Made by a program: the position numbers and the translations under genes
Assembly (NCBI GenBank): GCA_963746995.1
Contig: CAVVDF010000006.1
Coordinates: 15,403 to 79,402, forward strand
Direction: 5' to 3'
DNA length: 64,000 nt
From: an uncultured Actinomycetes bacterium
GTDB lineage: Bacteria > Actinomycetota > UBA4738 > HRBIN12
In this document: positions 2,700 to 62,381 of the stretch, one piece after another
How the letters are laid out: the number at the start of each line of letters is the position of its first letter
Position numbering within the stretch: the stretch's first letter is position 1
The notes under the pieces: generated by a model
The model's database searches: none
Told to the model about the DNA's origin: nothing
The model's input: only the letters and a program-made list of their open reading frames with translations

Positions 2700-2718
2700 C
2701 CGAACCAAGGGAGGACAC

Positions 2719-3512
2719 ATGAAGCGCGCACGACGAGCGACGATCGTGGCGGCGATCGCCCTGATCGCGACGTCGATCGGATGGAGCCAGCCGGTGCTCA
2801 CCGCCCACGCGGTGACGCCGGTGGTGGTCACGATCGGATTCGACGACGGCACGTTGGATCAGTTCGACGCACGCACAGTGCTGAGCGACCACGACATGAA
2901 CGCGACCTTCTTCATCAACAGCGGCTTCATCGGCGACGCCGACCATATGAGCCGGAGGCAGCTGGAGCTCCTGGCGAGCGACGGCAACGAGATCGGCGGG
3001 CACACCGTCGACCACGCGAACATCCAGCCGCTCTCGGTCATCGACGCGACCGCCGAGGTCTGCGACGACCACACACCCTGACCAGCTGGGGGTTCGACGT
3101 GACCTCGTTCGCGTATCCGTTCGGTTCCTACGACGCGACCAGTGAGGAGATCGTGGCGTCGTGCGGCTACACAAGTGCGCGCACCGTTTCGGGCGTCTCG
3201 ATCCACGTGGGCAAGAACAAGGTGGGCGAGACGATCCCGCCGGCTGATGCGTTCGCAACGCGCACGCCGCCCAACGCCAAGAAGGCGACGAAGCTCTCGA
3301 CGATGGAGCAATTCGTGCTGAACGCGGAGTCCGTCGCGCAATCGAGTGGCCAGAGCCTGTGGATCCAGTTCGTGTTCCATCGCTACTGCGATGCGCACTG
3401 CGGCGCGTACACCGTGCAGCCGACGAAGTTCGACGCACTGCTCGACTTCCTGCAGACGGAGGAGGGCGCCGGCCGGGTCAGCGTGCAGACGACCGCCGAG
3501 GCGATCGGCTGA
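2719..3512 (+). pseudogene. polysaccharide deacetylase (carbohydrate esterase 4 / NodB-like), secreted; one frame break
   Basis: GGAGG RBS, then ATG 2719. Signal peptide, then NodB motifs TIGFDDG and HTVDHANI. The C-terminal half (SWGFDVTSFAYPFGSY...) continues in the ORF 2781-3512, with a frame switch near 3065-3085. Confidence 0.7.
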
Positions 3513-9283: not shown

Positions 9284-9913
9284 ATGGCGACGTACGAACG
9301 CCGGCGCGAGGACGCGATCGCCGCCGGGATCGGCGCCTCGATCATCGTTGTCTGCGCGTTCCTGGCACGCAACGGCACGGTGGGCGATCTCGAGGCTCGC
9401 GTCTTCCGAGCGATCAACGGACTTCCCGACGCTCTCGCGCCGGTCATGACGAAGGCGCAGCTCCTGGGGGTGCTCGGTGTGGGGCCGCTCATCGCCGTGG
9501 TCGCGCTGATCGCTCGGCGGTGGCGCCTCGCCCTCGCGGCCCTGCTCGTGACCGTTGGCAAGCTCGCCGCCGAGCGGCTCGTCTGGCAGGTGGTCCAGCG
9601 AGAGCGGCCCGGCACCACGATCGTCGACGCGATCGTCCGAGGCGACACGCCACGCACAGGGCTGTCGTTCGTGTCGGGACACGTGATCTTGATCGTCGGC
9701 CTTGCCGTCGTGATCGAGCCTTACCTGCGCGGCCGGTGGCGCGTGGTTCCGTGGGCCGTCGTTGCACTGGTCATCTTCGCTCGTGTCTACCTCGGTGCGC
9801 ATGCGCCGCTCGACGTCCTCGGCGGCTTCGGCCTCGGGCTCGTCGTCGGCGGTCTCGCGAACGTGATCGTTGGCGTCCCGGCCGACGAGCATCTGGGAAC
9901 ATCGCCCGCGTGA
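9284..9913 (+). CDS. PAP2 family phosphatase (phosphatidic acid phosphatase type 2-like), membrane
   Basis: 209 aa with PAP2 motifs KLAAERLVWQVVQRERP, SFVSGH and ARVYLGAHAPLDVLGG. Confidence 0.8.
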   Translation: MATYERRREDAIAAGIGASIIVVCAFLARNGTVGDLEARVFRAINGLPDALAPVMTKAQLLGVLGVGPLIAVVALIARRWRLALAALLVTVGKLAAERLVWQVVQRERPGTTIVDAIVRGDTPRTGLSFVSGHVILIVGLAVVIEPYLRGRWRVVPWAVVALVIFARVYLGAHAPLDVLGGFGLGLVVGGLANVIVGVPADEHLGTSPA

Positions 9914-15784: not shown

Positions 15785-16437
15785 CCGACAACGACCGCGG
15801 TGCGCCGCCGATCGATCTGAGCGCCGGGCGCCTGGAGGCGTTCAGCGACGCGGTGATGGCAGTCATCATCACGTTGCTCGCGTTCGCGCTGCGACCACCG
15901 CAGGACGGGTCGTGGGACGCGATCGCGGACAAGGTGCCGGGATTCGCGATCTACGTCCTGAGCTTCCTCTTCATCGCGATCTACTGGAACAACCATCACC
16001 ACTTGCTGCGCGCCACCACGGTGATCAGCGGCGGCGTGATGTGGGCGAACATGACGCTGCTGCTCTGTCTGTCGCTGATCCCGGTCACCGCCGAATGGAT
16101 CCGCGACGCGTACGAGACACAGCAGTCCGAAGCTGTCCGGCTCCATGACATCGAGGTCTCGGTCGCGTTCTTCGGTGTCGTCGGGCTTGCGGCGGCCTTG
16201 TCCTACTTCGTCCTCGTTCGAGCGATCATCCGCGCGAACGGACCCGACTCGCTCGTCGGCATATCCGTGCACGCCGACCTCAAGGGCAAGGTCTCCCTCG
16301 TCTTGTACGCGGTGGGAGCCGGCCTCGCATTCGTGAGCGTCTGGCTCGCCTACGCGTGCTACGCGGCCGTTGCCGTGATGTGGCTCGTGCCCGACCGGAG
16401 GTTCATGCACACGCACGACGGCGACGACACGGGCTAG
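15781..16437 (+). CDS. TMEM175 / DUF1211 family putative cation channel
   Basis: 218 aa with the signature RLEAFSDAVMAVIITLL at the N-terminus and a second half-repeat. Confidence 0.75.
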   Translation: MTDNDRGAPPIDLSAGRLEAFSDAVMAVIITLLAFALRPPQDGSWDAIADKVPGFAIYVLSFLFIAIYWNNHHHLLRATTVISGGVMWANMTLLLCLSLIPVTAEWIRDAYETQQSEAVRLHDIEVSVAFFGVVGLAAALSYFVLVRAIIRANGPDSLVGISVHADLKGKVSLVLYAVGAGLAFVSVWLAYACYAAVAVMWLVPDRRFMHTHDGDDTG

Positions 16438-17195
16438 CGACGGCGCCCAGCCATCCGGTGCGCGGCGGCCGACGCGGCGTCCATCGTCGCGCGAGCGAGT
16501 TGCGGCACCTCGCGGGCCGGCAGCCGATACGCCGGACCGGACACGCTGATCGCCGCGGTGGCGACCCCGTCGACCACGACCGGTGCGGCGATCGTCACCA
16601 ACCCGTCCTCGAGCTCCCCGACGCTCGCCGCGTACCCCTGGCGACGCACCTGTCGGAGCGTCTCCACGAGCCGGGCGGCGTCGGTGATCGTCCGGTCCGT
16701 GCGGCGCTCCAGCCGCCCGAGGCCGCGTGCGGCCGCCTCGGGGTCGAGCCGCCCGAACGCCAACAGCACCTTGCCGCTCGAGCTCGCATGGACCGGGCTC
16801 CGTCGCCCCACCCAGCTCGCCATCACGACGGTCTGCGCCGGCGTCACCTGATCGACGTAGACGACGTGGCGGCCGTCGCGGATCGCAAGGTTCACCGTCT
16901 CCGCGGTCTTCCCGGACAGATGTTCCAGTTCGGGACGCGCCTGGCTCACGACCGGCAACCGCCCGACCGCGGCCGCGGCGAGACCGACGACCCGCGCCCC
17001 GATCCGGTACCGGCCGGTCCCCGCCTCACGCTCCAAGAGTCCGCCCGCGGCGAGGGTGGCGAGCAGCCGCGACGACGTCGATGCGTGCACCCTCAGCCGT
17101 CGCGCCACCTCGCGCACCCCCAGACCGTCGGGACTCTCACCCAACAGATCGAGTACGTCGACCACGCGCTGAGCACCGTCGGTGGAACGGGACAT
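16434..17195 (-). CDS. IclR family transcriptional regulator
   Basis: 253 aa from ATG 17195. N-terminal wHTH (VVDVLDLLGESPDGLGVREVARRLRVHASTSSRLL) and a C-terminal IclR effector domain. Confidence 0.85.
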   Translation of the reverse strand: MSRSTDGAQRVVDVLDLLGESPDGLGVREVARRLRVHASTSSRLLATLAAGGLLEREAGTGRYRIGARVVGLAAAAVGRLPVVSQARPELEHLSGKTAETVNLAIRDGRHVVYVDQVTPAQTVVMASWVGRRSPVHASSSGKVLLAFGRLDPEAAARGLGRLERRTDRTITDAARLVETLRQVRRQGYAASVGELEDGLVTIAAPVVVDGVATAAISVSGPAYRLPAREVPQLARATMDAASAAAHRMAGRRR

Positions 17196-17222
17196 GAACG
17201 CTCGACCCCTTGCACATTCGTG

Positions 17223-17237
17223 TTGCCGAGACGGCAA
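17223..17237. promoter_or_regulatory. perfect 6-3-6 palindrome TTGCCGAGACGGCAA in the iclR / ABC-operon divergent intergenic region (putative IclR operator)
   Basis: ttgccg-aga-cggcaa lies 28 bp upstream of the iclR start and 44 bp upstream of the divergent gene. Confidence 0.4.
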
Positions 17238-17280
17238 TACTAGCCTTGTCCCGGCCGACGGTGGTCCGTAGGGTCCGCGC

Positions 17281-18084
17281 GTGCAGCCAGGGGGGACCGA
17301 GACCGCGACGGACCACACCGCCGACCTCGCACTCGCGATGGAGCTCGCCGACGCAGCGGCTGCCGTGACGCTCTCGTGGTTCGGCAACCGTCTCCCAGTG
17401 GAGTTGAAGGCGGACGCCACGCCGGTCACCGAGGTGGACCGAGCGGCTGAGACGGCGATCCGGGCCCACCTCGCGACCTACGCGCCCGGTGACGGCGTCC
17501 TCGGCGAGGAGCACGGCCATCGCACCGGCGCTACCGGCCGCACCTGGGTGATCGACCCGGTCGACGGCACGAAGCTCTACGCGGAAGGCATCCCGCTGTG
17601 GACGACCCTGATCGGGCTTGTCGTCGACGGCCGCGCCGTGCTAGGCGTCGCCGATGCGCCGGCGCTCGGCGTGCGCTATCACGCGGTCCGCGGTGGCGGC
17701 GCGTGGCGGGGCGATCATCGGCTCGCGACCTCGGACGTCGGCACCCTCGGCGCCGCGTTCGTCGGCCACTCCCCCCTCGAGGAATGGATGTCCACCGGCG
17801 ACGCACACCAGCTGGAGGCGGTCGCGGCGAAAGCCCGGCGCACCCGTGGCCTCTCCGATGCCTGGGCGCATCTGCTGGTGGCGCAGGGCTCGATGGAAGC
17901 GCTCCTGGAGCACGAGCCATGCTTCCCCTGGGACTGGACTGCGACCGAGGTCATCGTCGAGGAGGCCGGCGGACGTATGACGACGATGGAGGGCGTGGAC
18001 CCGGCGCCCGGCACCAACCTGTTGGTCACGAACGGGCACGTCCACGACGAGATCGTGACGGTGCTCCAAGGAGGATCCGCATGA
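17281..18084 (+). CDS. inositol monophosphatase family protein (histidinol-phosphatase HisN-like)
   Basis: IMPase motifs WVIDPVDGT and FPWDW. The start is GTG 17281, or ATG 17338. Confidence 0.8.
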   Translation: MQPGGTETATDHTADLALAMELADAAAAVTLSWFGNRLPVELKADATPVTEVDRAAETAIRAHLATYAPGDGVLGEEHGHRTGATGRTWVIDPVDGTKLYAEGIPLWTTLIGLVVDGRAVLGVADAPALGVRYHAVRGGGAWRGDHRLATSDVGTLGAAFVGHSPLEEWMSTGDAHQLEAVAAKARRTRGLSDAWAHLLVAQGSMEALLEHEPCFPWDWTATEVIVEEAGGRMTTMEGVDPAPGTNLLVTNGHVHDEIVTVLQGGSA

Positions 18085-19871
18085 GGAAGCACCGCAGGCT
18101 CCTGATCGCGACGATCGCACTCGGGCTCACCGGGCTCGCCTTCACGCTGCCCGCACGCGCACAATCGACGTCGCCGTCGGACAGCGGCGATGACGTCGTG
18201 CTCCGCGTCGGCGTCACCGCCGACCTCGACACCGACAACGTGTTCGCGGTGAGCGGCGGGAGCGATTGGACGGTCGCGACCTCCGAGTACGACATGATGC
18301 GGTCCTTCGCGCCGGAGGATCTGACCGCCGCGCCCGGTCTCGCGATCGGTTGCACGCACAACGATGACTACACGGTCTGGACCTGCGACATCCAACAGGG
18401 CCTGCAGTGGAGCGACGGCGAGCCGCTCACCGCCGAAGACATCGCATTCACCTACCGATTCGTGATCGACAACAAGATCCCGCAGTACAAGAGCTACTTC
18501 CCGTCCAACCCCACATTCACGACGCCCGACGATCACACGCTCGTGTGGACGAGCGAGAAGCCAACCTTCGCCCCGGACATGCCGCCTTGGGTGTACATCG
18601 TTCCCGAGCACGACTGGGCGCCGTACAACGGGAAGACGCTGAAGGAGATCCGTGCGGTCGACGGTATGGACACTGCCGTCAGCGGGCCGTACATGCTCAC
18701 CGAATGGACCCACGGACAGGGTTGGACGATGGAGAAGAACCCGTACTTCCGTGGGCCGGAGCCCGCGATCGACCGTGTCGACTACCACCTGTACACCAAC
18801 CAAGAGGCGATGATCCAAGCCCTGAAGAACGCGGAGATCGACGTCGCCGACGGTCTCCAACCGTCGTTGATCGGCTCGATCGAGAACGCACCGGAGATCA
18901 CCGTCCAGAAGGTCGTCTCGGACTGGTGGTTGAACCTTGCGTTCAACTTCGGTGGCCAGAACCCCGATGCGGACCCCTTGCCGGCGTTGCACGACCACGA
19001 CGTGCGTCGTGCGATCTCGATGGCGATCGACAAGCAGGCGATCGTCAACAAGGTGTACCAAGGCGCGGCGACGACCGGCGACACGATCATCCGTCCGGCA
19101 TCGACGTTCTGGCATCTCGATATCCCGGCCGACCAGGAGATCCCGTTCGATCCCGACGGCGCCAACGCGCTGCTGGACCAAGCTGGCTACGCCGACACGA
19201 ACGACGACGGGGTCCGCGAGGATCCACAGACGGGCCAGCCGCTCGAACTGCGGATCCCCGCGTCGTCGGACACGACGGGTGCCGTTGAGTCCGGTGAGCT
19301 GATCGTCGGGTTCTTGAAGCGGATCGGCATCAAGGTCGATCTCTTGCCGGCGACGGACTCGAAGATGAACGACTACTGGGGCTCCGGCGATTTCGACGCG
19401 TACATCTGGTATTGGAGCGGCGATCCGGACCCGAACTATCAGCTCTTCGTCTTCACGTCCGAGCAGTGCGGCGCCTGGGAGGACGGCTGTTGGAAGAACG
19501 CCCAGTTCGACGACCTGTACGAGCAGCAGCGTTCGATGATGGATCAGAACGCACGTCAGCAGATCGTCAAGCGCGCGCAGCAGGTCGCCTACGACGACAT
19601 GCCGGGCGTGGTGCTCGCCTACCCGAACTGGCTGGAGGCCTATCGCAACGACCGCTTCACCGGCTGGACGCCGTCGCCCGGGGCGAACGGCTACCTGCTG
19701 CCGACCTACAACTACACGACCTTGTTGACGGCAAAGCCCGTCGAGGGCGTGGCGACCGGCGGTTCGACCTCGTTGCCCGGGTGGGTGTGGCTGCTCGTGA
19801 TCGCCGCGGTGGTCGCGATCGTCGTCCTGCTCGTCCGCCGGGGGCGTCGGGTGGCTCCGGACGAGGCGTAG
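18081..19871 (+). CDS. ABC transporter substrate-binding protein, family 5 (peptide/nickel type), with a C-terminal transmembrane anchor
   Basis: GGAGGA RBS, then ATG 18081. Sec signal peptide (no lipobox Cys). SBP_bac_5-like body. The C-terminus is LPGWVWLLVIAAVVAIVVLLVRRGRR, a hydrophobic helix followed by basic residues. Confidence 0.85.
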   Translation: MRKHRRLLIATIALGLTGLAFTLPARAQSTSPSDSGDDVVLRVGVTADLDTDNVFAVSGGSDWTVATSEYDMMRSFAPEDLTAAPGLAIGCTHNDDYTVWTCDIQQGLQWSDGEPLTAEDIAFTYRFVIDNKIPQYKSYFPSNPTFTTPDDHTLVWTSEKPTFAPDMPPWVYIVPEHDWAPYNGKTLKEIRAVDGMDTAVSGPYMLTEWTHGQGWTMEKNPYFRGPEPAIDRVDYHLYTNQEAMIQALKNAEIDVADGLQPSLIGSIENAPEITVQKVVSDWWLNLAFNFGGQNPDADPLPALHDHDVRRAISMAIDKQAIVNKVYQGAATTGDTIIRPASTFWHLDIPADQEIPFDPDGANALLDQAGYADTNDDGVREDPQTGQPLELRIPASSDTTGAVESGELIVGFLKRIGIKVDLLPATDSKMNDYWGSGDFDAYIWYWSGDPDPNYQLFVFTSEQCGAWEDGCWKNAQFDDLYEQQRSMMDQNARQQIVKRAQQVAYDDMPGVVLAYPNWLEAYRNDRFTGWTPSPGANGYLLPTYNYTTLLTAKPVEGVATGGSTSLPGWVWLLVIAAVVAIVVLLVRRGRRVAPDEA

Positions 19872-50487: not shown

Positions 50488-51957
50488 ATGAAGCGGGTCC
50501 TCGCGGTGTTCGCCATGCTCACGTGCGTGGCGTTCGCGCAGCCGGCCTCAGCCGCCACGCCGCGGTGGATAACGAGGATCGATCGGCTCGTCGCCGGCCA
50601 TCCGATGTCCGTGGTGGTCGGCAACGACGGCGAGTCGTGGTACCGCCATGCCGCCGCGTACCGCCGGGCGCCCGCCTCGAACGAGAAGCTGCTGTTATCG
50701 ATGGCCTTGTTCGAGCGGTTCGGCACCCATCACACGTTCCGGGTGCGCGCGATGGCCACCCGCGTCTCGCCCGCCGGCGTCGTCGACGGCGACCTCTACC
50801 TCCGTGGGGAAGGTGATCCCCGGACCGACGACCGAACCCTGCGGCGGCTCGCCGGGGCGATCGAAGCCGCCGGGGTCACAAGGATCAGCGGTCGCATCGT
50901 CGGTCAGACGGGTCCGTTCCACCGGGATTGGTTCGCCCCCGGCTGGAAGTCGTACTTCCCCGAGGACTACGTCGCGCTGCCGACCGCACTCACCTTCCAC
51001 GGCAACGCGACGGCGACCGGGGTGCACGTCACCGACCCCGAGCGACGAGCTGCCACCTTCCTGCGAACCGTCTTGCGCAACCGCGGCGTGGCGGTGCGCG
51101 GCACTGCCACCGCGGGGCCCGCGATCGCCGGGCTCCATGGGGTGACCACCGTCACATCGGCGCCGCTCGCGTCGCTCGTCCTTCGGATGAACCGCGTCTC
51201 GAACAACTTCTCGGCCGAGGTCCTCGGAAAGGCGCTCGCCTACGACCGCACCGGCGTCGGGTCGATCGCGGCTGCGGCCGCCGCGGTCTGTGGCTTCGAG
51301 GCGGCCCACGGGGTGAGCGCGACGACCTGTCACGACGCGTCGGGGCTCTCCTACGCCAACCGCCAGACGGCGCTGGGCGTCGTGCGGATGCTCTGGTTCG
51401 CCGACACACAACCGTGGGCGCCGGATCTTCGGCGGTCGCTCCCCGCAGGGAACCAGGGCACCCTCAAGGGTCGCTTGTCGAACGTCCGGCTCCGAGCGAA
51501 GACGGGCACGCTCGACAACGTCTCTGCCCTCTCGGGGTGGGTCTGGAGCGACGCGGCGAGCGACTGGATCGAGTTCTCGCTGCTGACGAGCGGCATGGAC
51601 GAGTGGAAGGCGAAGGACCTCGAGGACACGGTTGTGCGGTGCTTGCCAACCGGGCGAGCGACCCGACGCCCTAGAGGTCGATCGCGTAGCGAACCTCGGT
51701 GTACGACACGTCGATCGACGGAGTACGTCGGCACCACCGTCCGATCGCCACCCCTCCGCCTCATAGAATCGTCGCGCCCCCGCGTTCTCGAGCAAGAACC
51801 CAGAGCACCGCGCCGTCGAACCCCTGGGCCCGGAGTTCACCGGTCGCGTGTGCGAGTAGCCTTCGCCCGATCCCCGTGCGGGTCGACTCTTCAAGCAGAT
51901 AGACCGCGTAGACCTCACCGATATCGCCGAGCGGTTCCTCGTCGGCCCGTGTGCTGA
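50488..51957 (+). CDS. dacB: D-alanyl-D-alanine carboxypeptidase/endopeptidase (PBP4 / peptidase S13 family); the real 3' end is probably near 51675
   Basis: Signal peptide and active-site SxxK (ASNEKLL), then SNN-like and KTG (RAKTGTL) motifs. The last roughly 95 codons are Arg-rich and overlap the convergent GNAT gene. An alternative-frame TAG at 51672-51674 would give a normal-length protein. Confidence 0.7.
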   Translation: MKRVLAVFAMLTCVAFAQPASAATPRWITRIDRLVAGHPMSVVVGNDGESWYRHAAAYRRAPASNEKLLLSMALFERFGTHHTFRVRAMATRVSPAGVVDGDLYLRGEGDPRTDDRTLRRLAGAIEAAGVTRISGRIVGQTGPFHRDWFAPGWKSYFPEDYVALPTALTFHGNATATGVHVTDPERRAATFLRTVLRNRGVAVRGTATAGPAIAGLHGVTTVTSAPLASLVLRMNRVSNNFSAEVLGKALAYDRTGVGSIAAAAAAVCGFEAAHGVSATTCHDASGLSYANRQTALGVVRMLWFADTQPWAPDLRRSLPAGNQGTLKGRLSNVRLRAKTGTLDNVSALSGWVWSDAASDWIEFSLLTSGMDEWKAKDLEDTVVRCLPTGRATRRPRGRSRSEPRCTTRRSTEYVGTTVRSPPLRLIESSRPRVLEQEPRAPRRRTPGPGVHRSRVRVAFARSPCGSTLQADRPRRPHRYRRAVPRRPVC

Positions 51958-52150
51958 AGGCGACGAACCCGACGATCCGATCGGCGACCACCGCAACTGC
52001 AACACCGCCGCGCGGGCTCGCGTCGGCCCACATCGCCTCGCGATCCGCGACCGAGAGCTTGCAGCGTACTCGTCGGCGATCAGCCCGCGATACGCCCAGC
52101 GCCAGGCCGCGACATGGATCTGCGCGATGGTGCTGGTGTCATCGATCGTC
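51672..52150 (-). pseudogene. GNAT family N-acetyltransferase; frame broken at least twice and start unclear
   Basis: The pieces are IAQIHVAAWRWAYRGLI, GVAVAVVADRIVGFVAF...RTGIGRRLL (acetyl-CoA motif) and ENAGARRFYEAEGW. They lie in different frames, with switches near 52065-52075 and 51770-51790. Confidence 0.45.
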
Positions 52151-52178
52151 GCGGCCGGATCGACGCGGCCGCGGGAGC

Positions 52179-53774
52179 TCAGTCCTCGGCGAGCGCGCGT
52201 GGGTGCAACAGCCCGTAGGTGTATGCGTCAACGAGCGCCTCCCACGAGGCCTCGATGATGTTCTCGCTGACGCCGACGGTGGTCCACTCACGCTCGCCGT
52301 TCGACATGTCGATCAGCACACGCACGACGGCGCCCGCGCCGACGCTCCGATCGAGTACACGCACGCGGAAGTCCTCGAGTTCCATGTCGTCCAGCTGGGG
52401 GTAGTCGTTCGCAAGCGCCTTTCGCAACGCGTTGTCGAGTGCGCCGACCGGCCCTTGGCCCTCGGCGCTCTCGATGTGACGCGTGCCCTTCGTCGTCACC
52501 TTGACGGTCGCCTCAGCGAGCGGATCCTCGCCGTCGCCGACGCGCTCCTCCACGTGCACGCGGTAGCTCTCGATCCGGAAGTACTCCTGGGACCAGCCGC
52601 CCGCCCGGCGAAGCAGCAGCTCGAGCGAGGCCTCCGCCAGATCGAACGTGTAGCCCTCGGACCCACGAGCCTTGAGCTCCTCGACGGCAACCGGGATCGC
52701 CGCGTCGTCGATCGGCAGGCCGAACTCGTCGGCTTTCATCCGGATCGACGCGCCGCCGCTGTAGTCGGAGGCGACCACGCCTCGGCGGTTACCGACGGCC
52801 TCCGGGGGCACGTGCTCGTACGCGCGGGACACGCGCGCGACCCCACTCGTGTGCAGTCCGGCCTTGTGCGTGAAGGCATACCGACCGGCGTAGGGCTGCC
52901 GCGCCTCCGGCGCGAGGTTCGCGATCTCAGCGACATAGTGCGCAAGCTCGGTGAGGTGTTCGACGGCGCCGGCGGGCAATGCATCGGTCACGCCGAGCTT
53001 CAGCGCGAGGTTTGCGGCGATCGGCACGATGTCGGCGTTGCCCGTGCGCTCGCCGTAGCCGTTGACCGTTCCTTGGACCTGCAGAACCCCAGCGTCCACC
53101 GCGACGAGCGAGTTCGCCACGGCACAGCCCGCGTCGTTGTGCACATGGATCCCGAGCGGCACGCCGGTCTGTTCCTTCACGGTCTTGACGACGCGGGCGA
53201 TGTCGAACGGCAGCATGCCCCCGTTCGTGTCGCACAGCACCAGACGTTCGGCGCCCGCCTCCTCCGCGGCCGCCAGCACCGACATCGCGAACGCGGGATC
53301 GCTCGCGTACCCATCGAAGAAGTGCTCCGCGTCGAAGAACACGCGCCGGCCCTGCCCGCGCAGGAAGGTGACGGAATCTCGCACCATCGCGACACCCTCG
53401 TTAAGGTCTGTGCGCAGCGCCTCGGTGACGTGCAGATCCCAGGCCTTGCCGACCAAGCAGACGACCTCGGTGCCGGCGTCCAGCAGGTCTCGGAGCGCCT
53501 GTGCGTCCTGGGTGCGTTCGCCCGCCCGCCTGGTCATCCCGAACGCGGTCAGCTCCGCGTGCTGCAGCGTCTCCTTCGTCGCCAGCTGGAAGAACTCCGT
53601 GTCGCGGGGGTTCGCCCCCGGCCAGCCGCCTTCGATGTACGGGAAGCCGATCTGGTCGAGCTTGTGCAGGATGCGCAGGCGATCCTCGACCGTGTACGAC
53701 AGATCCGCTTGCTGGGCGCCGTCGCGCAGCGTGGTGTCGTACAGCTCGACCGAGACCGGCATGCGGTCGCTCAC
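52179..53774 (-). CDS. cimA: (R)-citramalate synthase / long-form 2-isopropylmalate-synthase homologue
   Basis: 531 aa intact with YDTTLRDGAQQ and HVHNDAGCAVANSL, plus a C-terminal LeuA-dimer regulatory domain. Confidence 0.75.
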   Translation of the reverse strand: MSDRMPVSVELYDTTLRDGAQQADLSYTVEDRLRILHKLDQIGFPYIEGGWPGANPRDTEFFQLATKETLQHAELTAFGMTRRAGERTQDAQALRDLLDAGTEVVCLVGKAWDLHVTEALRTDLNEGVAMVRDSVTFLRGQGRRVFFDAEHFFDGYASDPAFAMSVLAAAEEAGAERLVLCDTNGGMLPFDIARVVKTVKEQTGVPLGIHVHNDAGCAVANSLVAVDAGVLQVQGTVNGYGERTGNADIVPIAANLALKLGVTDALPAGAVEHLTELAHYVAEIANLAPEARQPYAGRYAFTHKAGLHTSGVARVSRAYEHVPPEAVGNRRGVVASDYSGGASIRMKADEFGLPIDDAAIPVAVEELKARGSEGYTFDLAEASLELLLRRAGGWSQEYFRIESYRVHVEERVGDGEDPLAEATVKVTTKGTRHIESAEGQGPVGALDNALRKALANDYPQLDDMELEDFRVRVLDRSVGAGAVVRVLIDMSNGEREWTTVGVSENIIEASWEALVDAYTYGLLHPRALAED

Positions 53775-54823
53775 GCCGAGCCCTCGACGACGAGATCGCC
53801 GATCTCACTTGTCGTGAAGCCCATCTCGCCGGCACGCATGCTCTTCATCTGGCTCGTCGCCGCGCGGATCCCGCGGTCGACGCGTTCGGCGGCCTGGGTT
53901 TCGCCGAGCTGGCGCAGCAGCATCTCGAGCGCACCGATGGCGGCGAGCGGATTGATCGTGCCCTTGCCGGTCTCGCTCGGCGCCGTACCTCCGATCGGCT
54001 CGAACATCGACACGCCGTCGGGATTGATATTGCCGCCCGCGGCGATGCCCATCCCGCCTTGGATCATCGCGCCGAGGTCCGTGATGATGTCGCCGAACAT
54101 GTTGTCGGTGACGATCACGTCGAACCGCGACGGCGAGTCCAGGAAGTAGATGCACGCCGCGTCGACGTGCACGTAGTCGGTCTCGACGAGCGGGAACTCG
54201 GTTGCGACGTCGTCGACGACTCGCTGGTAGAGGTCGCCGGCGAAGGTCAACACATTCGTCTTGTGCACGAGGGTGAGCTGCCTGCGTCGAGCGGGCGAGG
54301 CGGCTAACTCGAATGCGTAACGGACGATCCGCTCCACTCCGTGCCGCGTGTTGATGGACTCCTGCACGGCAACCTCATGCTGCGTGCCCTTGCGATGGAA
54401 GCCGCCCGCGCCGCTGTACAGGCCTTCGGAGTTCTCACGGACGACGACGAGGTTGACGTCGTCCTCGGCGTGGCTCGGCACGAGCGTCTGCACGCCCGGA
54501 TACCGCACGACCGGGCGGAGGTTGACCCACTGATCGAGCTGGAACCGGATCTTCAAGAGCAGCTCGCGCTCGAGGACGCCGGGCTTCACCCGCGGATCGC
54601 CAACCGCGCCGAGGAAGATCGCGTCGCAGGCCGCGAGCTGCTCGAGGTCTGCGTCTGGGAGCACCTCGCCCGTCCGGAGGTACCGATCGGCGCCGAGATC
54701 GAAGTCGACGAGCTCGACCTCGAAACCGTTGCGGACGGCGTCGAGCACCTTGAGCCCCTCGCCGACGACCTCGGGTCCGGTGCCGTCGCCCCGGATCACC
54801 CCGATCCGGTACGAACCGGTCAC
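53771..54823 (-). CDS. leuB: 3-isopropylmalate dehydrogenase
   Basis: 350 aa intact with the IDH/IMDH signature [25 protein letters not shown]. Confidence 0.9.
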
Positions 54824-56418
54824 GGGGTGACCTCGTTCGTTTGTGCCTCGTCCTTCGCTTGTACCCGCAGCGCGCGGTTCACCGCCGCGAGGTACGCGCG
54901 CGCGCTCGCCTCGACGACGTCGGTCGCGACGCCGCGGCCCGTCACGCGCCGCCCGTCGATGTCGAGCTGCACCACGACGTCGCCGAGCGCGTCGGTGCCA
55001 CCGGTCACCGCCGAGACGTGGAAGTTCACGAGCCGGGCCTCGACGCCGGCGGCGCGCGCGATCGCGCCCATCACCGCGTCGATCAATCCGTCGCCGATCG
55101 CCGACTCCTCGATCGTCTCATCGCCCTTCGTGAGGTGGACCGTGGCCCGCGGCTGCAGATGCGTGCCGCCGCCCACGACCACCGATTCGAGAAGGAAGAC
55201 GTCAGCCTCCGCCGCGCCCAGTCTCCTCGGCGACGATCGCGGCCAGATCCTGGTCGGTGAGCTGAACCTTGCGGTCGGCGAGGTCCTTGAAGCGCGTGAA
55301 CGCGCGGTTGCAACTGCGCGTCGTCGAGCGTGATGCCCAGCTTGTCCAGCGCGTCGACGAACGCGTGCCGGCCGCTGTGCTTGCCCAGCACCAGCTGGTT
55401 GCCCTCGAGCCCGATCTCGAGCGGGTCCATGATCTCGTAGGTCGCGCGGTTCGCGAGCACGCCGTGCTGGTGGATGCCGCTCTCGTGCGCGAACGCGCTC
55501 GAGCCGACCACCGCCTTGTTCGGCTGCACGCTGTACCCGGTCATCATCGACACCAGCCGCGACGTCCGGGTGATCTCCTTGATGTTGAGGCCGTGCTGCA
55601 CGCCGAGGTGCTCGCCGACGCGTGCGGACGATCATCGCGATCTCCTCGAGCGAGCAGTTGCCGGCGCGCTCGCCGATCCCGTTGACGGCGACCTCGATCT
55701 GGCGAGCGCCGTTCTCGATGCCGGCCAGCGCGTTCGCGACCGCCAGACCGAGATCGTTGTGGCAGTGCGTCGAGATGACGACCTCGTCGGGCAGCTCCTG
55801 GCGCACGATCCGGACCAGCTCGCCGAACTCCGTCGGCGTCGCGTACCCAACCGTGTCGGGCACGTTGATCGTCGTCGCGCCGTGCTCGACGGCGAGCCGG
55901 TAAGCACTCGAGCAGGAACTCCAGCTCGGTGCGCGTCGCGTCCTGCGCGGAGAACTCGACGTCGTCGGTGTAGGTCTTCGCCAGCTTGACGTTGTCCTCG
56001 ATCGCCTGCAGCACCTGCTGGTTCGACATCTTCAGCATCGCGCCCATCTGGATGTCGCTCGTCGAGATGAAGGTGTGGATGCGCCAGCGATCGGCGCCTT
56101 TGAGCGCCTCTGCGGCGCGCTCGATGTCGCCGGTGGCCGTGCGCGCGAGCGCGGCGATCACGGGGCCGTGCACCGAATCGGCGATCTCGCGCACGGCTTC
56201 GAACTCGCCCTGCCCGAGATCGGGAACCCCGCCTCGAGGATGTCGACGTTCAGCCGGGCGAGTTGTTCGGCGATCTCGACCTTCTCGGCGCGGGTCAGCG
56301 CGATGCCGGGCGCTTGTTCGCCGTCGCGCAGGGTCGTGTCGAAGATCCGTACTACGTCTGATTGGCCTACCGCTTCGCTGCTTGAGCCCTGTACGTCGGG
56401 GTCTGCATCCGTACTCAT
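54820..56418 (-). pseudogene. leuA: 2-isopropylmalate synthase, reading frame broken about five times
   Basis: All LeuA segments are present in order across ORFs 56158-57435 (C-terminal part), 55544-56194, 54820-55863 and 55083-55601. They include [28 protein letters not shown] and the [13 protein letters not shown] region. Frame switches fall near 56200, 55890, 55620, 55300 and 55210. Confidence 0.8.
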
Positions 56419-56420
56419 GG

Positions 56421-57435
56421 TCAACTCGGCACTTTCTTCTCGGACTCCAACCAGGGCATCATCTGGCGCAGCTGCCGTCCCACGTCTTCGAGCTGGGAGG
56501 TCTGCGCCTGCTTGCGAAGTCGGAGGAACTCCGGGAAACCGGCGTCCGCCTCGCCGATCCACTTCTTGGCGAACGTGCCGTCCTGGATCTCGGCGAGGAT
56601 CTGCTCCATCGCCTGCGCGGGAATGCTCGTCGACCACCCGCGGGCCGCTCTGGTAGTCGCCCCATTCGGCGGTGTCGGAAACGCTGTAGCGCATCCACGA
56701 CAGGCCGCCCTCGTAGATCAGGTCGATGATCAGCTTCAGCTCGTGCAGACACTCGAAGTAGGCGATCTCCGGCTGGTAGCCGGCGGCCACCAGCGTGTCG
56801 AAGCCCGTTCTTGACGAGGCTCGGAGACGCCACCGCACAGGACGGACTGCTCGCCGAAGAGGTCGGTCTCGGTCTCTTCCTTGAAGCGTGGTCTCGATGA
56901 TGCCGGCGCGGGCGCAGCCGATCCCGGCCCCGTAGGCGAGCGCGCGGGCTTTCGCCGCGCCCGTCGCGTCCTGCTGCACCGCCACGAGACCGGGCGTGCC
57001 GATCCCTTGCTCGTAGGTACGGCGCACAAGGTGGCCCGGGCCCTTTGGCGCGATCATCGTCACGTCCACACCCGCCGGCGGCACCACCGTGGCGAAGTGG
57101 ATCGAGAAGCCGTGGGCGAACATCAGCATGTCGCCGTCCTCCAGGTTCGGGCGCGATGTCCACGCGTAGACGGCGCCGTGCGACGTGTCGGGCAGCAGGC
57201 ACATGATCACATCGGCGTCCGCGACGGCGTCGGCGGTGTCGAGCACCTTCAGCCCGGCCTCCTCGGCCTTGACGCGACTCGACGATCCGGGGCGAAGCCC
57301 CACGCGGACGTCATGCCCGCTGTCCTGCAGGTTCTGGGCGTGTGCGTGACCCTGCGAGCCGAACCCGAGCACCGCGATCTGCTGTCCGGCGAGCGCGTTC
57401 GGCTCGGTCTCCGCCTCGTAGTAGATCGTGGCCAT
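56421..57435 (-). pseudogene. ilvC: ketol-acid reductoisomerase, reading frame broken about three times
   Basis: The N-terminus has [17 protein letters not shown] intact. The middle ([19 protein letters not shown]) and C-terminus ([14 protein letters not shown]...) are in other frames, in ORFs 56736-57029 and 56421-56609. Confidence 0.8.
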
Positions 57436-57484
57436 GGTCGGCGTCCTTCCTTCCTCGTCGGTGCGTTCGCGGCCCAGGGTCGCC

Positions 57485-58013
57485 TCAGGCGTCGTTCGCG
57501 ACCTTGAGAGACCGGTCCTTGATACCGCGGCCGCCGCGGCCGAGCGCGATCCGCCCGGTGCGCGAGAGCTCGACGACGCCGAAGTCGCGCAGCAATCCGA
57601 GCAACGCCTCGAGCTTCTCGGACTTGCCGGCGGCCTCGAGCGTGAGCGTCGTCTTGCGTCACGTCGACGACGTTCACGCGGAACACGTCGGCGATCTCCA
57701 TCACGCGGGCTCGCCCGTCGCCGTCGGCGCGCACCTTGACGAGCATCAGCTCGCGTTCGACCGCCGAGCCGGGATCGTGCTCGAGGATCTTGATCACGTT
57801 CACCAGCTTGTTCAGCTGCTTCGTGACCTGTTCGAGCGGCTTGTCCTCGACATTGATCACGATCGTCATCCGCGAGATCCCCGGTTGCTCCGTCGCGCCG
57901 ACGGCGAGCGAGTCGATGTTGAACCCGCGCGCCGCGAACAGACCCGCGATCCGGGTGAGCACGCCGGGCCGGTCCTCGACGAGCACCGAGATCGTGTGCA
58001 GGTGGCCGTTCAT
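57485..58013 (-). pseudogene. ilvN: acetolactate synthase small (regulatory) subunit; one frame break
   Basis: The ACT domain is [28 protein letters not shown]. The C-terminal part [16 protein letters not shown]...KVANDA* is in another frame, with a switch near 57645-57668. Confidence 0.75.
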
Positions 58014-59758
58014 ACGATCGGCGCCTCCCCCGGGATCTCGTGGGGCGCGAACTCGGGCCCGAGGATGATGTCGTCGTTCGATGCGCCCGCGGGCACCATC
58101 GGGAACACGCCCTCGCGCGGGTCGACCCGGAAGTCGATCACGACACTGCGATCCTCCACCGCATACGCCTTCTCGATCGCCGCGTCGACCTCCTCGGGGC
58201 TCTCCACCCGGAACCCCACCGCCCCGTACGCCTCGGCGAGCCGCACGTAGTCGGGCGACGTCCGGATTGAGGTACACGCCCGAGTAGCGCTCGTCGAAGA
58301 ACAGCTCCTGCCATTGGCGGACCATCCCGAGATAGCCGTTGTTCAGGATCGCCGTGATGAACGGGATCTGTTCGGTGTTGCTCGTCGCGAGCTCCTGCGC
58401 CGTCATCTGGAAACAGCCGTCGCCGTCGATCGCGACCACCCGTTTGTCGGGCTGGCCGGTCTTCGCGCCGAGCGCCGCGGGCACGGCGAAGCCCATCGTG
58501 CCGAGCCCGCCGGAGTTGATCCAATGCCGCGGCCGCTCGAAGCGCCAGTACTGCGCACGCGTACATCTGGTGCTGTCCCACGCCCGGCCACGAGGATCGT
58601 GTCGTCGTCGGCGAAGTGCGCGCAGCCGCTCCACGCAATACTGCGGCTTGAGCCGGTCCGATTCCTGGCCGTAGCGCAGGGGGTACTGCTGCCGCCAGTC
58701 GGCGAGCTGTCCGAGCCAGGCGGACCGGTCGGGCGCGCCGTGCTCGCCCTGCCGCTTCGCCAGCTCGACGGCGAGCTTGCCGATCACGTCCTTGCAGTCG
58801 CCGACGATCGGCACGTCGGCGACCCGGTTCTTACCGATCTCGGCCGGGTCGACGTCGACGTGCACGATCTTCGCGTCGGGGGCGAAGGCCGCGAGCTTGC
58901 CGGTGACGCGGTCGTCGAACCGCGCGCCGAGCGCGACCAACAGATCGGCGCGCTGCATCGACGTGACCGCGGTGTAGTTCCCGTGCATGCCCGGCATGCC
59001 GAGGCAGAGCTCGTGCGAATCGGGGAACGCGCCCCGCGCCATCAAGGTCGTGACGACCGGGAGGCCGGCCGATCGTGGCGAGCTCGAGCAGCTCCGGGGG
59101 CGGCGTCGGCCTTGATGACGCCGCCGCCGACGTAGAGGACCGGCCGCTCCGCCGCGAGGATCAGCTTCACGGCCTCGGATACCTGGCGGTTGTTGCCCTT
59201 CGTCGTCGGCCGGTAGCCCGGCAGGTTGATCTTCTCGGGCCAACGTACTCGACGTCGGCGTTCAGCACGTCCTTCGGCAGGTCGACCAGCACGGGGCCGG
59301 GGCGGCCGGTGCTCGCGATGTGGAACGCCTCGCGTACGGTCTCGACGATGTCCTCGGCCCGCTTCACCAGGAAGTTGTGCTTCGTCACCGGGATCGTGAT
59401 GCCGGTGATGTCGGCTTCCTGGAAGGCGTCGTTGCCCACGACCGGCGTCGGCACCTGGCCGGTGAGCGCGACGATCGGCACCGAATCCATCTTCGCGTCG
59501 GCGAGCGGCGTCACGAGGTTGCGTCGCGCCCGGTCCGCTGGTCGCCATGCACACGCCGACCTTGCCGGTCGCCCAGGCGTAGCCCTCCGCCGCGTGGCCG
59601 GCGCCTTGCTCGTGACGGCAGAGCACATGGCGGATCGGCGACCGGTCGACCAGCGGGTCGTAGATCGGCATGCTGGCGCCGCCGGGGATGCCGAAGATGA
59701 CCTCGACGCCCTCCTGCTCGAGGGCCTTGAGGACGGCGTCCGCGCCCTTGACGGTCAT
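58010..59758 (-). pseudogene. ilvB: acetolactate synthase large subunit, reading frame broken at least six times
   Basis: All TPP-enzyme segments are present across ORFs 59042-60073, 59167-59628, 57249-59243, 58138-58638 and 58010-58246. They include GIPGG, GPGATNLVT and GLGTMGFAVPAALGAKTG...AIDGDGCFQM. Confidence 0.8.
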
Positions 59759-59760
59759 CC

Positions 59761-60073
59761 GCGCGGCCACCTCGCGCTGTTCGACGGGCCCGGTCTCGAC
59801 CCGGCGGACCTGCGCCTGCAGCCGATGCGCGAGGTTGCGGCACGCACGCTCGAACTCCCAGGGTGTCCAGTCGCGCCGACGCATCTGCAACACGTCGGGA
59901 ACCTCCTCGTCGCCCATGTCGAACCCGCCGCCCAGATACACCACCTCCGAGGAGAGGTACCGGTCGACCGTCGCACGGGTGGAGTTGTCGATCGCGTCGA
60001 CCGTCACTTGGCCGGGGCCCTCCCACAGAACGCTCGCGACGACGGTGCCGTCTCGCTCGAATTCGTACCGCAT
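59761..60073 (-). CDS. hypothetical small ORF between the ilv attenuator and ilvB (reads into the ilvB start with no intervening stop)
   Basis: AGGAAGGAG RBS, then ATG 60073 ([22 protein letters not shown]...). No homology recognised. It may be a separate small gene whose stop was lost through an indel, or a spurious extension. Confidence 0.3.
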
Positions 60074-60135: not shown

Positions 60136-60202
60136 CAAAAAGCCCCCCGCTGGGCGGAGGGCATCTGGCGCGGGGGTCTTCGGGCCCGTGGGCCCCCCGC
60201 GC
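60136..60202 (-). terminator. transcription attenuator of the ilv operon: mutually exclusive antiterminator and terminator hairpins, followed by a U-run
   Basis: The minus-strand transcript has region 1 gcgcggggg (which abuts the leader stop codon), region 2 cccccgcgc, and a terminator gccctccg-cccag-cggggggc followed by uuuuugu. Region 2 can pair either with region 1 or with the terminator 3' arm. Confidence 0.6.
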
Positions 60203-60253
60203 CTAGGCGATAAGTACGAGGACGCTGTGTCCGGTCACAGCCTTGTTCGACAT
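60203..60253 (-). CDS. ilvL: ilv operon leader peptide MSNKAVTGHSVLVLIA (16 aa), rich in Val/Leu/Ile regulatory codons
   Basis: ATG 60253 to TAG 60205-60203. The five consecutive branched-chain codons VLVLI sit immediately before the stop, which abuts attenuator region 1. A TTGACA -35 element, a 17-bp spacer and a cacact -10 lie just upstream at 60263-60291. Confidence 0.55.
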   Translation of the reverse strand: MSNKAVTGHSVLVLIA

Positions 60254-60301
60254 CGTTCAGACAGTGTGCGGCCCAACCGCCGAGGTGTCAACCTCGGGGC
60301 T

Positions 60302-62381
60302 TCACTGTGTCCCGCGCGAAGACTGCGGCGTGACGAAGAAGTCCTGGTGCATGCCCATCGCGTAGTGCCCGGGGAGGTTGCACACCACGGCGTCATGCCC
60401 CGGGGCGAGATCCAGGGTCAGCATCATCACCGCACCGGGCTCCATATCGCCGGTCTCCCCGACGTTGGTGACCCCCTTGGCGTCTTCGTCGATCCGGTTG
60501 GCCTCGCCCTCGAAGCTCACGATCGGGAATGCGGCGGCCGGGGTGTCGGTGGCGAGCACCACGAACTCATGCTTCTTCGCACCGTTGTTCGTCACGAGGA
60601 ACGAGACCTTGCCCTGGGGTGCGAAGGGTTGGGACAGATCGATCGCCATGTGGGTGGCGTCGGTCTCGGACAGCCCCACCTCGACGGGGGTGGCGCCGGT
60701 GGGCGTGACGAAGAAGTCCTGGTGCATGCCCATCGCGTAGTGCCCGGGGAGGTTGCACACCACGGCGTCATGCCCCGGGGCGAGATCCAGGGTCAGCATC
60801 ATCACCGCACCGGGCTCCATATCGCCGGTCTCCCCGACGTTGGTGACCCCCTTGGCGTCTTCGTCGATCCGGTTGGCCTCGCCCTCGAAGCTCACGATCG
60901 GGAATGCGGCGGCCGGGGTGTCGGTGGCGAGCACCACGAACTCATGCTTCTTCGCACCGTTGTTCGTCACGAGGAACGAGACCTTGCCCTGGGGTGCGAA
61001 GGGTTGGGACAGATCGATCGCCATGTGGGTGGCGTCGGTCTCGGACAGCCCCACCTCGACGGGGGTGGCGCCGGTGGGGCGTGACGAAGAAGTCCTGGTG
61101 CATGCCCATCGCGTAGTGCCCGGGGAGGTTGCACACCACGGCGTCATGCCCCGGGGCGAGATCCAGGGTCAGCATCATCACCGCACCGGGCTCCATATCG
61201 CCGGTCTCCCCGACGTTGGTGACCCCTTTGGCGTCTTCGTCGATCCGGTTGGGCCTCGCCCTCGAAGCTCACGATCGGGAATGCGGCGGCCGGGGTGTCG
61301 GTGGCGAGCACCACGAACTCATGCTTCTTCGGCACCGTTGTTCGTCACGAGGAACGAGACCTTGCCCTGGGGTGCGAAGGGTTGGGACAGATCGATCGCC
61401 ATGTGGGTGGCGTCGGTCTCGGACGAGCCCCACCTCGACGGGGGTGGCGCCGGTGGGGCGTGACGAAGAAGTCCTGGTGCATGCCCATCGCGTAGTGCCC
61501 GGGGAGGTTGCACACCACGGCGTCATGCCCCGGGGCGAGATCCAGGGTCAGCATCATCACCGCACCGGGCTCCATATCGCCGGTCTCCCCGACGTTGGTG
61601 ACCCCTTTGGCGTCTTCGTCGATCCGGTTGGGCCTCGCCCTCGAAGCTCACGATCGGGAATGCGGCGGCCGGGGTGTCGGTGGCGAGCACCACGAACTCA
61701 TGCTTCTTCGCACCGTTGTTCGTCACGAGGAACGAGACCTTGCCCTGGGGTGCGAAGGGTTGGGACAGATCGATCGCCATGTGGGTGGCGTCGGTCTCGG
61801 ACGAGCCCCACCTCGACGGGGGTGGCGCCGGTGGGCGTGACGAAGAAGTCCTGGTGCATGCCCATCGCGTAGTGCCCGGGGAGGTTGCACACCACGGCGT
61901 CATGCCCCGGGGCGAGATCCAGGGTCAGCATCATCACCGCACCGGGCTCCATATCGCCGGTCTCCCCGACGTTGGTGACCCCTTTGGCGTCTTCGTCGAT
62001 CCGGTTGGCCTCGCCCTCGAAGCTCACGATCGGGAATGCGGCGGCCGGGGTGTCGGTGGCGAGCACCACGAACTCATGCTTCTTCGCACCGTTGTTCGTC
62101 ACGAGGAACGAGACCTTGCCCTGGGGTGCGAAGGGTTGGGACAGATCGATCGCCATGTGGGTGGCGTCGGTCTCGGACAGCCCCACCTCGATCACCGGGA
62201 TCGGGGCGTCGTAGCCCTGGATCGGCGGCCCGCTCTGCGCCGCACCGCCGGTGTAGCCGGGGATCATGGCAACGGTCTCGCCACCGCCCTGGGTGTTGAC
62301 GGAGCAGCTCATCAGCAAGGCCACGATCCCCAGCACCAGCCACCCACGAGCGCGGAACCCGAGCTTCCCGATGCGCGTCAT
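60302..62381 (-). CDS. lipoprotein composed of five tandem, near-identical type-1 (blue) copper cupredoxin domains; the frame is interrupted by small indels in repeat copies 3 and 4
   Basis: AGGAGA RBS, then ATG 62379-62381, then lipobox LLMSCSVN. A 125-aa unit (...HMAIDL...AKKHEFVV...CNLPGHYAMGMHQDFFVTP) is repeated five times and carries the His/Cys/His/Met ligand pattern. The gene lies 9 bp downstream of the cytochrome c gene in the same orientation. Confidence 0.7.
60330..62190. repeat. tandem repeat of 5 x about 376 bp (periods 375, 376, 379, 376), more than 98% identical
   Basis: Unit starts (gtgacgaagaagtcctggtgcatgcccatcg) are at 60330, 60705, 61081, 61460 and 61836. The copies differ only by a few single-base indels or substitutions (ggttggcc vs ggttgggcc, gacagcccc vs gacgagcccc, cccttggc vs cctttggc). 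Confidence 0.9.

Follow-up and report, generated by a model that had tools for sequence, protein, structure and literature searches.

The window analysed here, a stretch of 64,000 nucleotides from contig CAVVDF010000006.1 of assembly GCA_963746995.1 (uncultured Actinomycetes bacterium, lineage HRBIN12), carries an operon for the biosynthesis of branched-chain amino acids. With gene coordinates set from peptide anchors, the operon reads entirely on the minus strand and comprises a conserved 105-aa ORF (orfX, 59757-60073), ilvB for the acetolactate synthase large subunit (58010-59758), ilvN for the small subunit (57486-58013), ilvC for ketol-acid reductoisomerase (56421-57435), leuA for 2-isopropylmalate synthase (54820-56418), leuB for 3-isopropylmalate dehydrogenase (53771-54823) and cimA for citramalate synthase (52179-53774). 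The last two are intact single ORFs of 350 and 531 aa. NCBIfam curated cut-offs were applied to whole proteins, IlvB, IlvN, IlvC and LeuA being scored after removal of the indels described below, and all six enzymes pass: IlvB with 915 bits on NF005860 (cut-off 881) and 784 bits on TIGR00118 (cut-off 538), IlvN with 218.7 bits on NF008864 (cut-off 119), IlvC with 515.9 bits on NF004017 (cut-off 336), LeuA with 701 bits on NF002086 (cut-off 532), LeuB with 489 bits on NF002898 (cut-off 393) and CimA with 636 bits on TIGR00977 (cut-off 450). The gene names given in the initial annotation are correct, and so is its leader with a putative attenuator. OrfX, located between the attenuator and ilvB, matched no Pfam or NCBIfam family; it is 94% identical to its counterpart in the related genome L082, and in both L081 and L082 it is a separate 105-aa gene whose stop codon overlaps the ilvB start.

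Upstream of orfX lies the leader peptide MSNKAVTGHSVLVLIA (60203-60253, minus strand), which reads through to its stop codon without breaks, as had been claimed for it earlier, and a leader ending in LVLIx before the stop is retained in nine relatives. Two hairpins follow on the same strand (60136-60206; RNA fold of -61.5 kcal/mol, z = -2.2), the second of which (60162-60142) is G+C-rich, precedes a U run and looks like an attenuator terminator. The relatives share this arrangement of leader and hairpins; Rfam, searched over the whole window at gathering thresholds, returned no match. In Corynebacterium glutamicum, also an actinobacterium, ilvBNC is controlled by leader-peptide attenuation, and the present locus resembles that system in having a short leader ORF that ends in Val/Leu/Ile codons (VLVLI) and hairpins with a putative U-run terminator upstream of ilvB. 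It differs in that orfX is placed between attenuator and ilvB, and in that the operon runs on into leuA, leuB and cimA.

Between orfX and leuB the reading frames are heavily broken, and the breaks in ilvB, ilvN, ilvC and leuA are confirmed as real features of the deposited sequence. MAFFT alignment of the window with 9-11 colinear relatives having the same operon yields 21 indels of 1 bp that are private to the window, 18 of them insertions and 3 deletions. They extend from 59,761 to 55,222, hence from the end of orfX into leuA on the minus strand, at a density of 21 in 4.54 kb or about 1 per 216 bp. The single indel of orfX, an insertion at 59761, joins the upstream 105-aa ORF to ilvB. Eight frame-shifting indels fall in ilvB (59522, 59245, 59100, 59064, 58618, 58585, 58556 and 58257; that at 59245 is a deletion), with tblastn frames confirming the shifts; one insertion falls in ilvN (57655), six indels in ilvC (57160, a deletion, then 57151, 56886, 56819, 56803 and 56615) and five in leuA (56214, a deletion, then 55901, 55618, 55310 and 55222). 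Two of the six in ilvC, 9 bp apart, cancel each other. The earlier tally of frame corrections, about 15, was right about the existence of the breaks and too low in their number. The same disruption is visible in a GC3 frame plot, where the frame changes about 13 times in 54.8-59.6 kb and the segments measure 120-780 bp, compared to gene-sized runs throughout 1-51.6 kb. In leuB and cimA, 2.65 kb together, there is no private indel, just as first noted, and the Poisson probability of finding none at the rate of the broken genes is about 5e-6.

The insertions have a distinctive composition. Within ilvB-leuA, 14 of 17 create a two-base doublet, and each base of the doublet is an allele found at one and the same alignment column among 9 relatives; random insertion in simulation gave such both-allele doublets 29% of the time (binomial P = 9e-6). 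Six doublets are at codon position 3, five of these with synonymous alternatives, and the others correspond to residue pairs (S/A, F/Y, L/M, E/A) of which mostly both members are present in relatives. The 3 deletions are likewise located at variable columns. At 55222 the window reads GAGGAGACTGGGC, for which the single-base versions are GAGGAGATGGGC and GAGGAGCTGGGC. A typical doublet is AC in the window at a column that holds either A or C in relatives. A neighbouring base is repeated by 6 of the 17 insertions, fewer than the 51% that chance would give, and the insertion contexts contain no long homopolymers; the pattern is not that of slippage. Mere extension of the adjacent base accounts for three insertions (59064, 57655 and 57151). 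Doublets at variable columns are, by all appearance, the mark of a consensus drawn from mixed strains.

The broken operon is not alone in the window. The initial annotation held the density of breaks to be far above that of the remaining sequence, which is true of most of the window, where long ORFs are intact (one of 5.3 kb included), but at least three other patches are broken too. A GH9 cellulase gene (about 870-2700) is broken into pieces that lie in three different frames. Downstream of cimA, a GNAT acetyltransferase gene (51690-52170, minus strand) has private indels with shifts near 52061 and 51791, and the GNAT protein of L082 used as tblastn query aligns in HSPs of frames -2, -1 and -2. 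Beyond the leader, a 375-bp unit that encodes a sulfocyanin-like cupredoxin domain (Pfam SoxE) is repeated five times in tandem (60297-62190, minus strand; TRF: period 375, 5.0 copies, 99% matches), with copy spacings of 375/376/379/377. Copies 3-4 (61048-61803) contain 7 additional single bases, which disrupt the reading frame, and the insertions in the repeat mostly lengthen C runs. Similar events are found in other metagenome-assembled genomes (MAGs). Among those of the MFD series, private insertions at other positions of the operon number 4 in L001 (3 of both-allele type) and 1 each in L005 and L003 (both-allele in each). L082 and L007, taken as short-read assemblies, have none in the operon. 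The Flye-style contig names of L001, L003 and L005 suggest long-read assembly, and so does, for the present genome, the placement of the window's proteins on one contig of 621,606 bp.

Based on the evidence from the sequence comparisons, the frame breaks are almost certainly assembly errors and not a sign of pathway loss. The explanation that we consider highly probable is that they represent consensus errors, not mutations, of a long-read and probably metagenome-assembled contig in which strains have been collapsed. Reads over the patch would derive from at least two closely related strains that the assembler merged into one sequence; at some of the single-nucleotide differences both alleles would be kept in tandem, resulting in a 1-bp insertion, and at a few others neither allele would be kept, resulting in a 1-bp deletion. 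The true organisms would then most likely possess an intact, attenuator-controlled orfX-ilvB-ilvN-ilvC-leuA-leuB-cimA operon. It is the doublet pattern alone that points to the read mixture. An exact-pattern scan of metagenome contigs at two doublet sites, with one or two bases allowed at each, found no match, and the nearest intact homologues of IlvB in protein searches are 95-96% identical, so that the collections searched hold no independent sequence of the same strain. The mixed-strain model by itself does not account for the clean 2.65 kb of leuB-cimA between two error-rich patches; perhaps the strains do not differ over that stretch, or perhaps it was better polished.

Consensus indels of long-read assemblies are documented to cause frameshifted gene calls, mainly at homopolymers (Sereika et al. 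2022, PMC9262707), and the indels of the operon resemble those reported for Nanopore or PacBio assemblies and MAGs (PMC9262707; proovframe, 10.1101/2021.08.23.457338) in being 1-bp, patchy and splitting conserved genes. As with such long-read errors, the breaks vanish on comparison with reference proteins, and in the present comparison further long-read MAGs from this lineage are affected as well. Most of the breaks, however, differ from the documented homopolymer errors in being doublets of two alleles at variable sites. Assemblies are also documented to collapse conspecific strains to a single consensus (Strainberry paper, PMC8302730), and the present case is similar to it in that one consensus stands for several strains, with trouble concentrated where they differ. 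The Strainberry work deals with collapse and lost identity, but not with the insertion of both alleles, and our literature search found no paper that explicitly describes an artefact in which both alleles are kept. We infer this mechanism ourselves from the doublet statistics.

Regarding the alternatives, one is that the patch had low coverage or was left unpolished, so that ordinary noise of long reads introduced indels at random or in homopolymers without any mixture of strains. The patchiness of the errors would fit a local failure of polishing, and homopolymer indels are the class already documented (PMC9262707). The C-run extensions in the interior repeat copies, together with the 3 of 17 operon insertions that extend a neighbour, indicate that such noise contributes too. 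As the sole cause it is unlikely, given that random insertion falls far short of the both-allele frequency observed in the operon and that neighbour repeats are depleted there, away from any long homopolymer. Very unlikely, in our assessment, is that the consensus merges two diverged paralogous ilvBNC-leuA copies carried by a single genome. This reading has the merit that doublets would also be confined to the duplicated segment and that leuB and cimA, if unduplicated, would be clean, but the relatives show one colinear copy at each locus examined, tblastn finds no second ilvB, ilvN, ilvC or leuA within the window, and a single duplication leaves the broken GH9 and GNAT genes unexplained.

Genuine recent pseudogenisation, in which de novo synthesis of Val/Leu/Ile is being lost through many real 1-bp indels while leuB, cimA and the leader are kept, takes the deposited sequence at its word: the indels are there, four consecutive genes are inactivated by them, and the window offers no second copy as replacement. 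The condition of the encoded proteins argues otherwise. Once the indels are removed, IlvB, IlvN, IlvC and LeuA are full length with 0 in-frame stops, and their identity to relatives (0.80-0.885) compares with 0.82-0.87 for the intact LeuB and CimA, relative-to-relative identities being in the same range. At sites that are otherwise conserved, the broken genes have 0.0368 window-private nonsynonymous changes per codon, compared to 0.0393 for leuB and cimA together; relaxed selection on the broken genes is not indicated. In bacterial mutation spectra, small indels are several-fold rarer than substitutions, and real decay on the scale of 21 indels should therefore have brought about 100 or more extra substitutions. 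True clusters of biosynthetic pseudogenes, as known from genome reduction in Mycobacterium leprae, share with the present operon the occurrence of several frame breaks in adjoining genes. Real decay of that type, however, involves stop codons, larger deletions and higher nonsynonymous divergence, none of which is seen here. The excess of insertions over deletions (18 to 3) likewise speaks against it, as do the similar breaks in unrelated genes of the window and in the same operon of other long-read MAGs. Gene loss is disfavoured above all by the preponderance, among the insertions, of allele doublets at variable sites, a pattern that mutation does not produce. Pseudogenisation is thus strongly disfavoured already by the substitution and doublet tests in combination, and we regard it as exceedingly improbable. 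Of the two possibilities originally put forward for the locus, low-quality consensus gains support from the allele doublets; loss of Val/Leu/Ile synthesis, in view of the absent stops, the absent nonsynonymous excess and the cut-offs passed, does not. For the frameshifts to be real, ilvB, ilvN, ilvC and leuA would have to have been inactivated very recently by a rush of 1-bp mutations that were biased towards insertion and came with next to no substitutions, which we consider scarcely credible. The lineage would then have an unusual mode of mutation and would newly depend on an outside supply of branched-chain amino acids. In a weaker form of this reading, given the same low credence, the doublets would reflect a genuine island of strain divergence over ilvBNC-leuA, flanked by an identical leuB-cimA.

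The importance of the locus is mainly that of a caution. Annotated at face value, it would be recorded as four pseudogenes with a predicted need for external valine, leucine and isoleucine, and that predicted requirement is almost certainly wrong, judging from the consensus-error explanation favoured here. The analysis also suggests a read-free test for clusters of frameshifts in MAGs, which asks whether an inserted base, taken together with the base beside it, gives the two alleles known at that column from relatives, and whether substitutions have accumulated alongside the indels.

Programmed frameshifting or transcriptional slippage was rejected as an origin of the breaks, since the 21 sites differ in direction and have no slippery motif in common. 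The end of synteny with L081 and L082 at 60.3 kb raised the question of a misjoin there, which was likewise rejected, as the upstream neighbourhood varies among the relatives themselves.

The cluster of frame breaks in this branched-chain amino-acid operon is almost certainly an assembly artefact. The operon is ordered, on the minus strand, as leader peptide (60253-60203), two hairpins with a U run after the second (60206-60136), the conserved 105-aa ORF orfX (60073 to about 59757), ilvB (59758-58010), ilvN (58013-57486), ilvC (57435-56421), leuA (56418-54820), leuB (54823-53771) and cimA (53774-52179). Several reading frames are needed for each of ilvB, ilvN, ilvC and leuA. The GC3 frame plot, trustworthy at the window's G+C content of ~68%, places ~13 frame changes in 54.8-59.6 kb; from 1 to 51.6 kb its runs are gene-sized. 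For comparison, a LeuB scan of species-representative genomes gathered ~20 uncultured actinobacterial MAGs in which this operon is present and colinear across 8.1 kb, and a protein search with IlvB corrected for the window's indels reached the closer contigs L081, L082 and L083. IlvB identity to L081 and L082 is 95-96%, and in L082, a JGI metagenome contig, the operon is intact. MAFFT alignments with the relatives reveal 21 indels private to the window, each of exactly 1 bp: eight in ilvB (59522, 59245, 59100, 59064, 58618, 58585, 58556, 58257), one in ilvN (57655), six in ilvC (57160, 57151, 56886, 56819, 56803, 56615), five in leuA (56214, 55901, 55618, 55310, 55222) and one at 59761 that joins orfX to ilvB. 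Those at 59245, 57160 and 56214 are deletions. Frame plot and alignments thus confirm the breaks reported in the initial annotation, albeit at a higher density (one per 216 bp) than it had estimated. Its description of leuB and cimA as intact also holds: each is one ORF, 350 aa long in leuB and 531 aa in cimA, and together they have no private indel in 2.65 kb, an outcome with a probability of ~5e-6 at equal rate.

The nature of the insertions is revealed by reading the alignment site by site. A single base in the relatives corresponds to two in the window, and these are the relatives' alternatives. At 55222 the window reads AC, with A in L081 and L082 (ATG, Met) and C in most others (Leu codons in five relatives); at 55618 it reads TC, against CGT or CGC in relatives; at 55901, TA for TTC (Phe) or TAC (Tyr); at 58556, TG for TCG (Ser) or GCx (Ala); and at 56803 and 56886, both third positions, GC for G or C. 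Of the 17 insertions between ilvB and leuA, an automatic criterion classes 14 as such both-allele doublets, compared to 29% expected from 200,000 random insertions simulated into the same alignment (binomial P = 9e-6). Six doublets occupy codon position 3, with synonymous alternatives in five; the others mostly combine two residues each found in relatives. The three deletions likewise lie at variable columns. Polymerase slippage is not the source, because only 6 of the 17 insertions repeat a neighbouring base. Purely random or homopolymer noise accounts for insertions in a tandem repeat upstream of the operon and perhaps for three of those within it, but leaves the doublet excess unaccounted for. 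A second allele set beside the first is not expected from mutation; it is expected from a consensus over reads of two related strains.

In the mechanism proposed, reads of two related strains would be merged into one consensus. A mismatch between them would be written as an insertion plus a deletion, and a caller judging columns separately would retain both bases, or neither. That column-by-column retention is what we infer, and no description of it was found in the literature consulted on it; residual long-read indels are known to frameshift gene calls (PMC9262707), and conspecific strains to collapse into a single consensus (PMC8302730). The window's proteins are recorded from a single contig of 621,606 bp (NCBI, ENA), a length suggestive of long reads. 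Flye-style contig names suggest the same for three relatives, L001, L005 and L003, which have private insertions in the operon at other positions: four in L001, three of them both-allele, and one both-allele insertion each in L005 and L003. No such private insertions occur in the operon of L082 or L007, which were taken as short-read assemblies. In L001 (10001-12643), leuB and cimA are merged into an 880-aa ORF and ilvC is without a single covering ORF. In L081, likewise suggested to be long-read by its Flye-style contig name, cimA is in two parts of 351 and 205 aa (15966-17578) and the S13 peptidase gene is broken into three (18046-19279).

Broken genes occur elsewhere in the window. A GH9 cellulase at about 870-2700 (plus strand) is spread over three frames, which hold CelD_N, GH9 profile positions 42-231 and positions 232-439, with breaks near 1300 and 1960. 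The adjacent polysaccharide deacetylase (patch about 870-3500, plus strand) is probably broken too, showing an apparent frame change near 3080-3110. This region forms another error-rich patch, distant from the ilv-leu operon. Downstream of cimA, a GNAT acetyltransferase gene (51.7-52.17 kb) has two shifts (frames -2, -1, -2), and the convergent peptidase S13 ORF (50488-51957) overruns the end of its L082 homologue by ~90 codons, so that the indel-rich zone restarts directly after cimA. leuB and cimA are hence a perfectly clean stretch with an error-rich patch on either side, perhaps because the strains do not differ there or because polishing succeeded locally. About 50 kb of the window, including ORFs of 5.3 and 3.7 kb, are free of breaks, and Pfam domains are complete at every place examined there. 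Two paralogous copies of the operon collapsed into one would be expected to leave the same doublet signature, but no second copy was seen in the window or in the loci fetched from relatives, and the broken GH9 and GNAT genes would be unaccounted for.

Genuine loss of Val/Leu/Ile synthesis, which the initial annotation had set beside low-quality consensus, is contradicted by the state of the genes. With private insertions deleted and deletions masked, all four translate end to end with 0 stop codons. The corrected proteins are 0.80-0.885 identical to their nearest relatives, the range found between relatives, and intact LeuB and CimA give 0.82-0.87. All score above the NCBIfam curated cut-offs (IlvB, 915 bits vs 881; IlvN, 219 vs 119; IlvC, 516 vs 336; LeuA, 701 vs 532). 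At sites where relatives agree, private nonsynonymous changes per codon are 0.0368 in the broken genes vs 0.0393 in leuB and cimA. Bacterial base substitutions exceed small indels several-fold, and 21 neutral indels should therefore bring ~100 or more substitutions, some of them stops; neither corrected translations nor substitution counts show these in the broken genes. Long-standing pseudogenes are excluded, and even an inactivation of very recent date would require a burst of mutation confined to indels. The doublets and their recurrence in comparable assemblies further oppose gene loss, while doublets, restored proteins and the other broken patches support the low-quality consensus. Programmed frameshifting is implausible at 21 sites that share no motif. 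Auxotrophy should not be deduced from the MAG carrying this window, and the combined doublet and substitution analysis is usable as an artefact test where reads are not at hand.

The leader noted initially, with its putative attenuator, is real and intact, as would be predicted for a working operon. The peptide reads MSNKAVTGHSVLVLIA, its LVLI ending plus one residue is kept in nine relatives, and hairpins and U run follow; the element has no covering Rfam family. The product of orfX (9687-10004 in L082) is conserved in relatives (80-94% identity), carries zero window-private nonsynonymous changes and belongs to no family in Pfam or NCBIfam. In L081 and L082 the orfX stop and the ilvB start overlap in an ATGA; orfX is an uncharacterised ilv-operon partner in this lineage, apparently co-translated.

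Upstream of the leader, on the minus strand, a 375-bp (125-codon) unit is repeated five times in tandem over 60297-62190 (ORFs 62381-61698 and 61147-60302), and the copies are near-identical in DNA sequence. Every copy codes for a cupredoxin domain of the sulfocyanin-like (SoxE) type whose copper site shows a Cys-His-Met pattern, and a lipoprotein-type signal peptide precedes the first. Interior copies 3 and 4 contain seven additional single bases, most of which extend runs of C. The gene, absent near the operon in all fetched relatives, could encode a genuine five-domain blue-copper protein or be an assembler-inflated repeat. Together with three minus-strand ORFs upstream of it which, read from translation, resemble cytochrome c (62957-62391, CxxCH), Rieske protein (63487-62846) and the cytochrome b C-terminus (63998-63489), it looks like a putative bc-type complex operon. 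Synteny with L081 and L082 stops just upstream of the leader (~60300), exactly where the tandem repeat starts; upstream of position 9466 these contigs carry ilvD, a PALP enzyme, a permease and an allene-oxide-cyclase-like gene, and the neighbourhood varies among the other relatives too.
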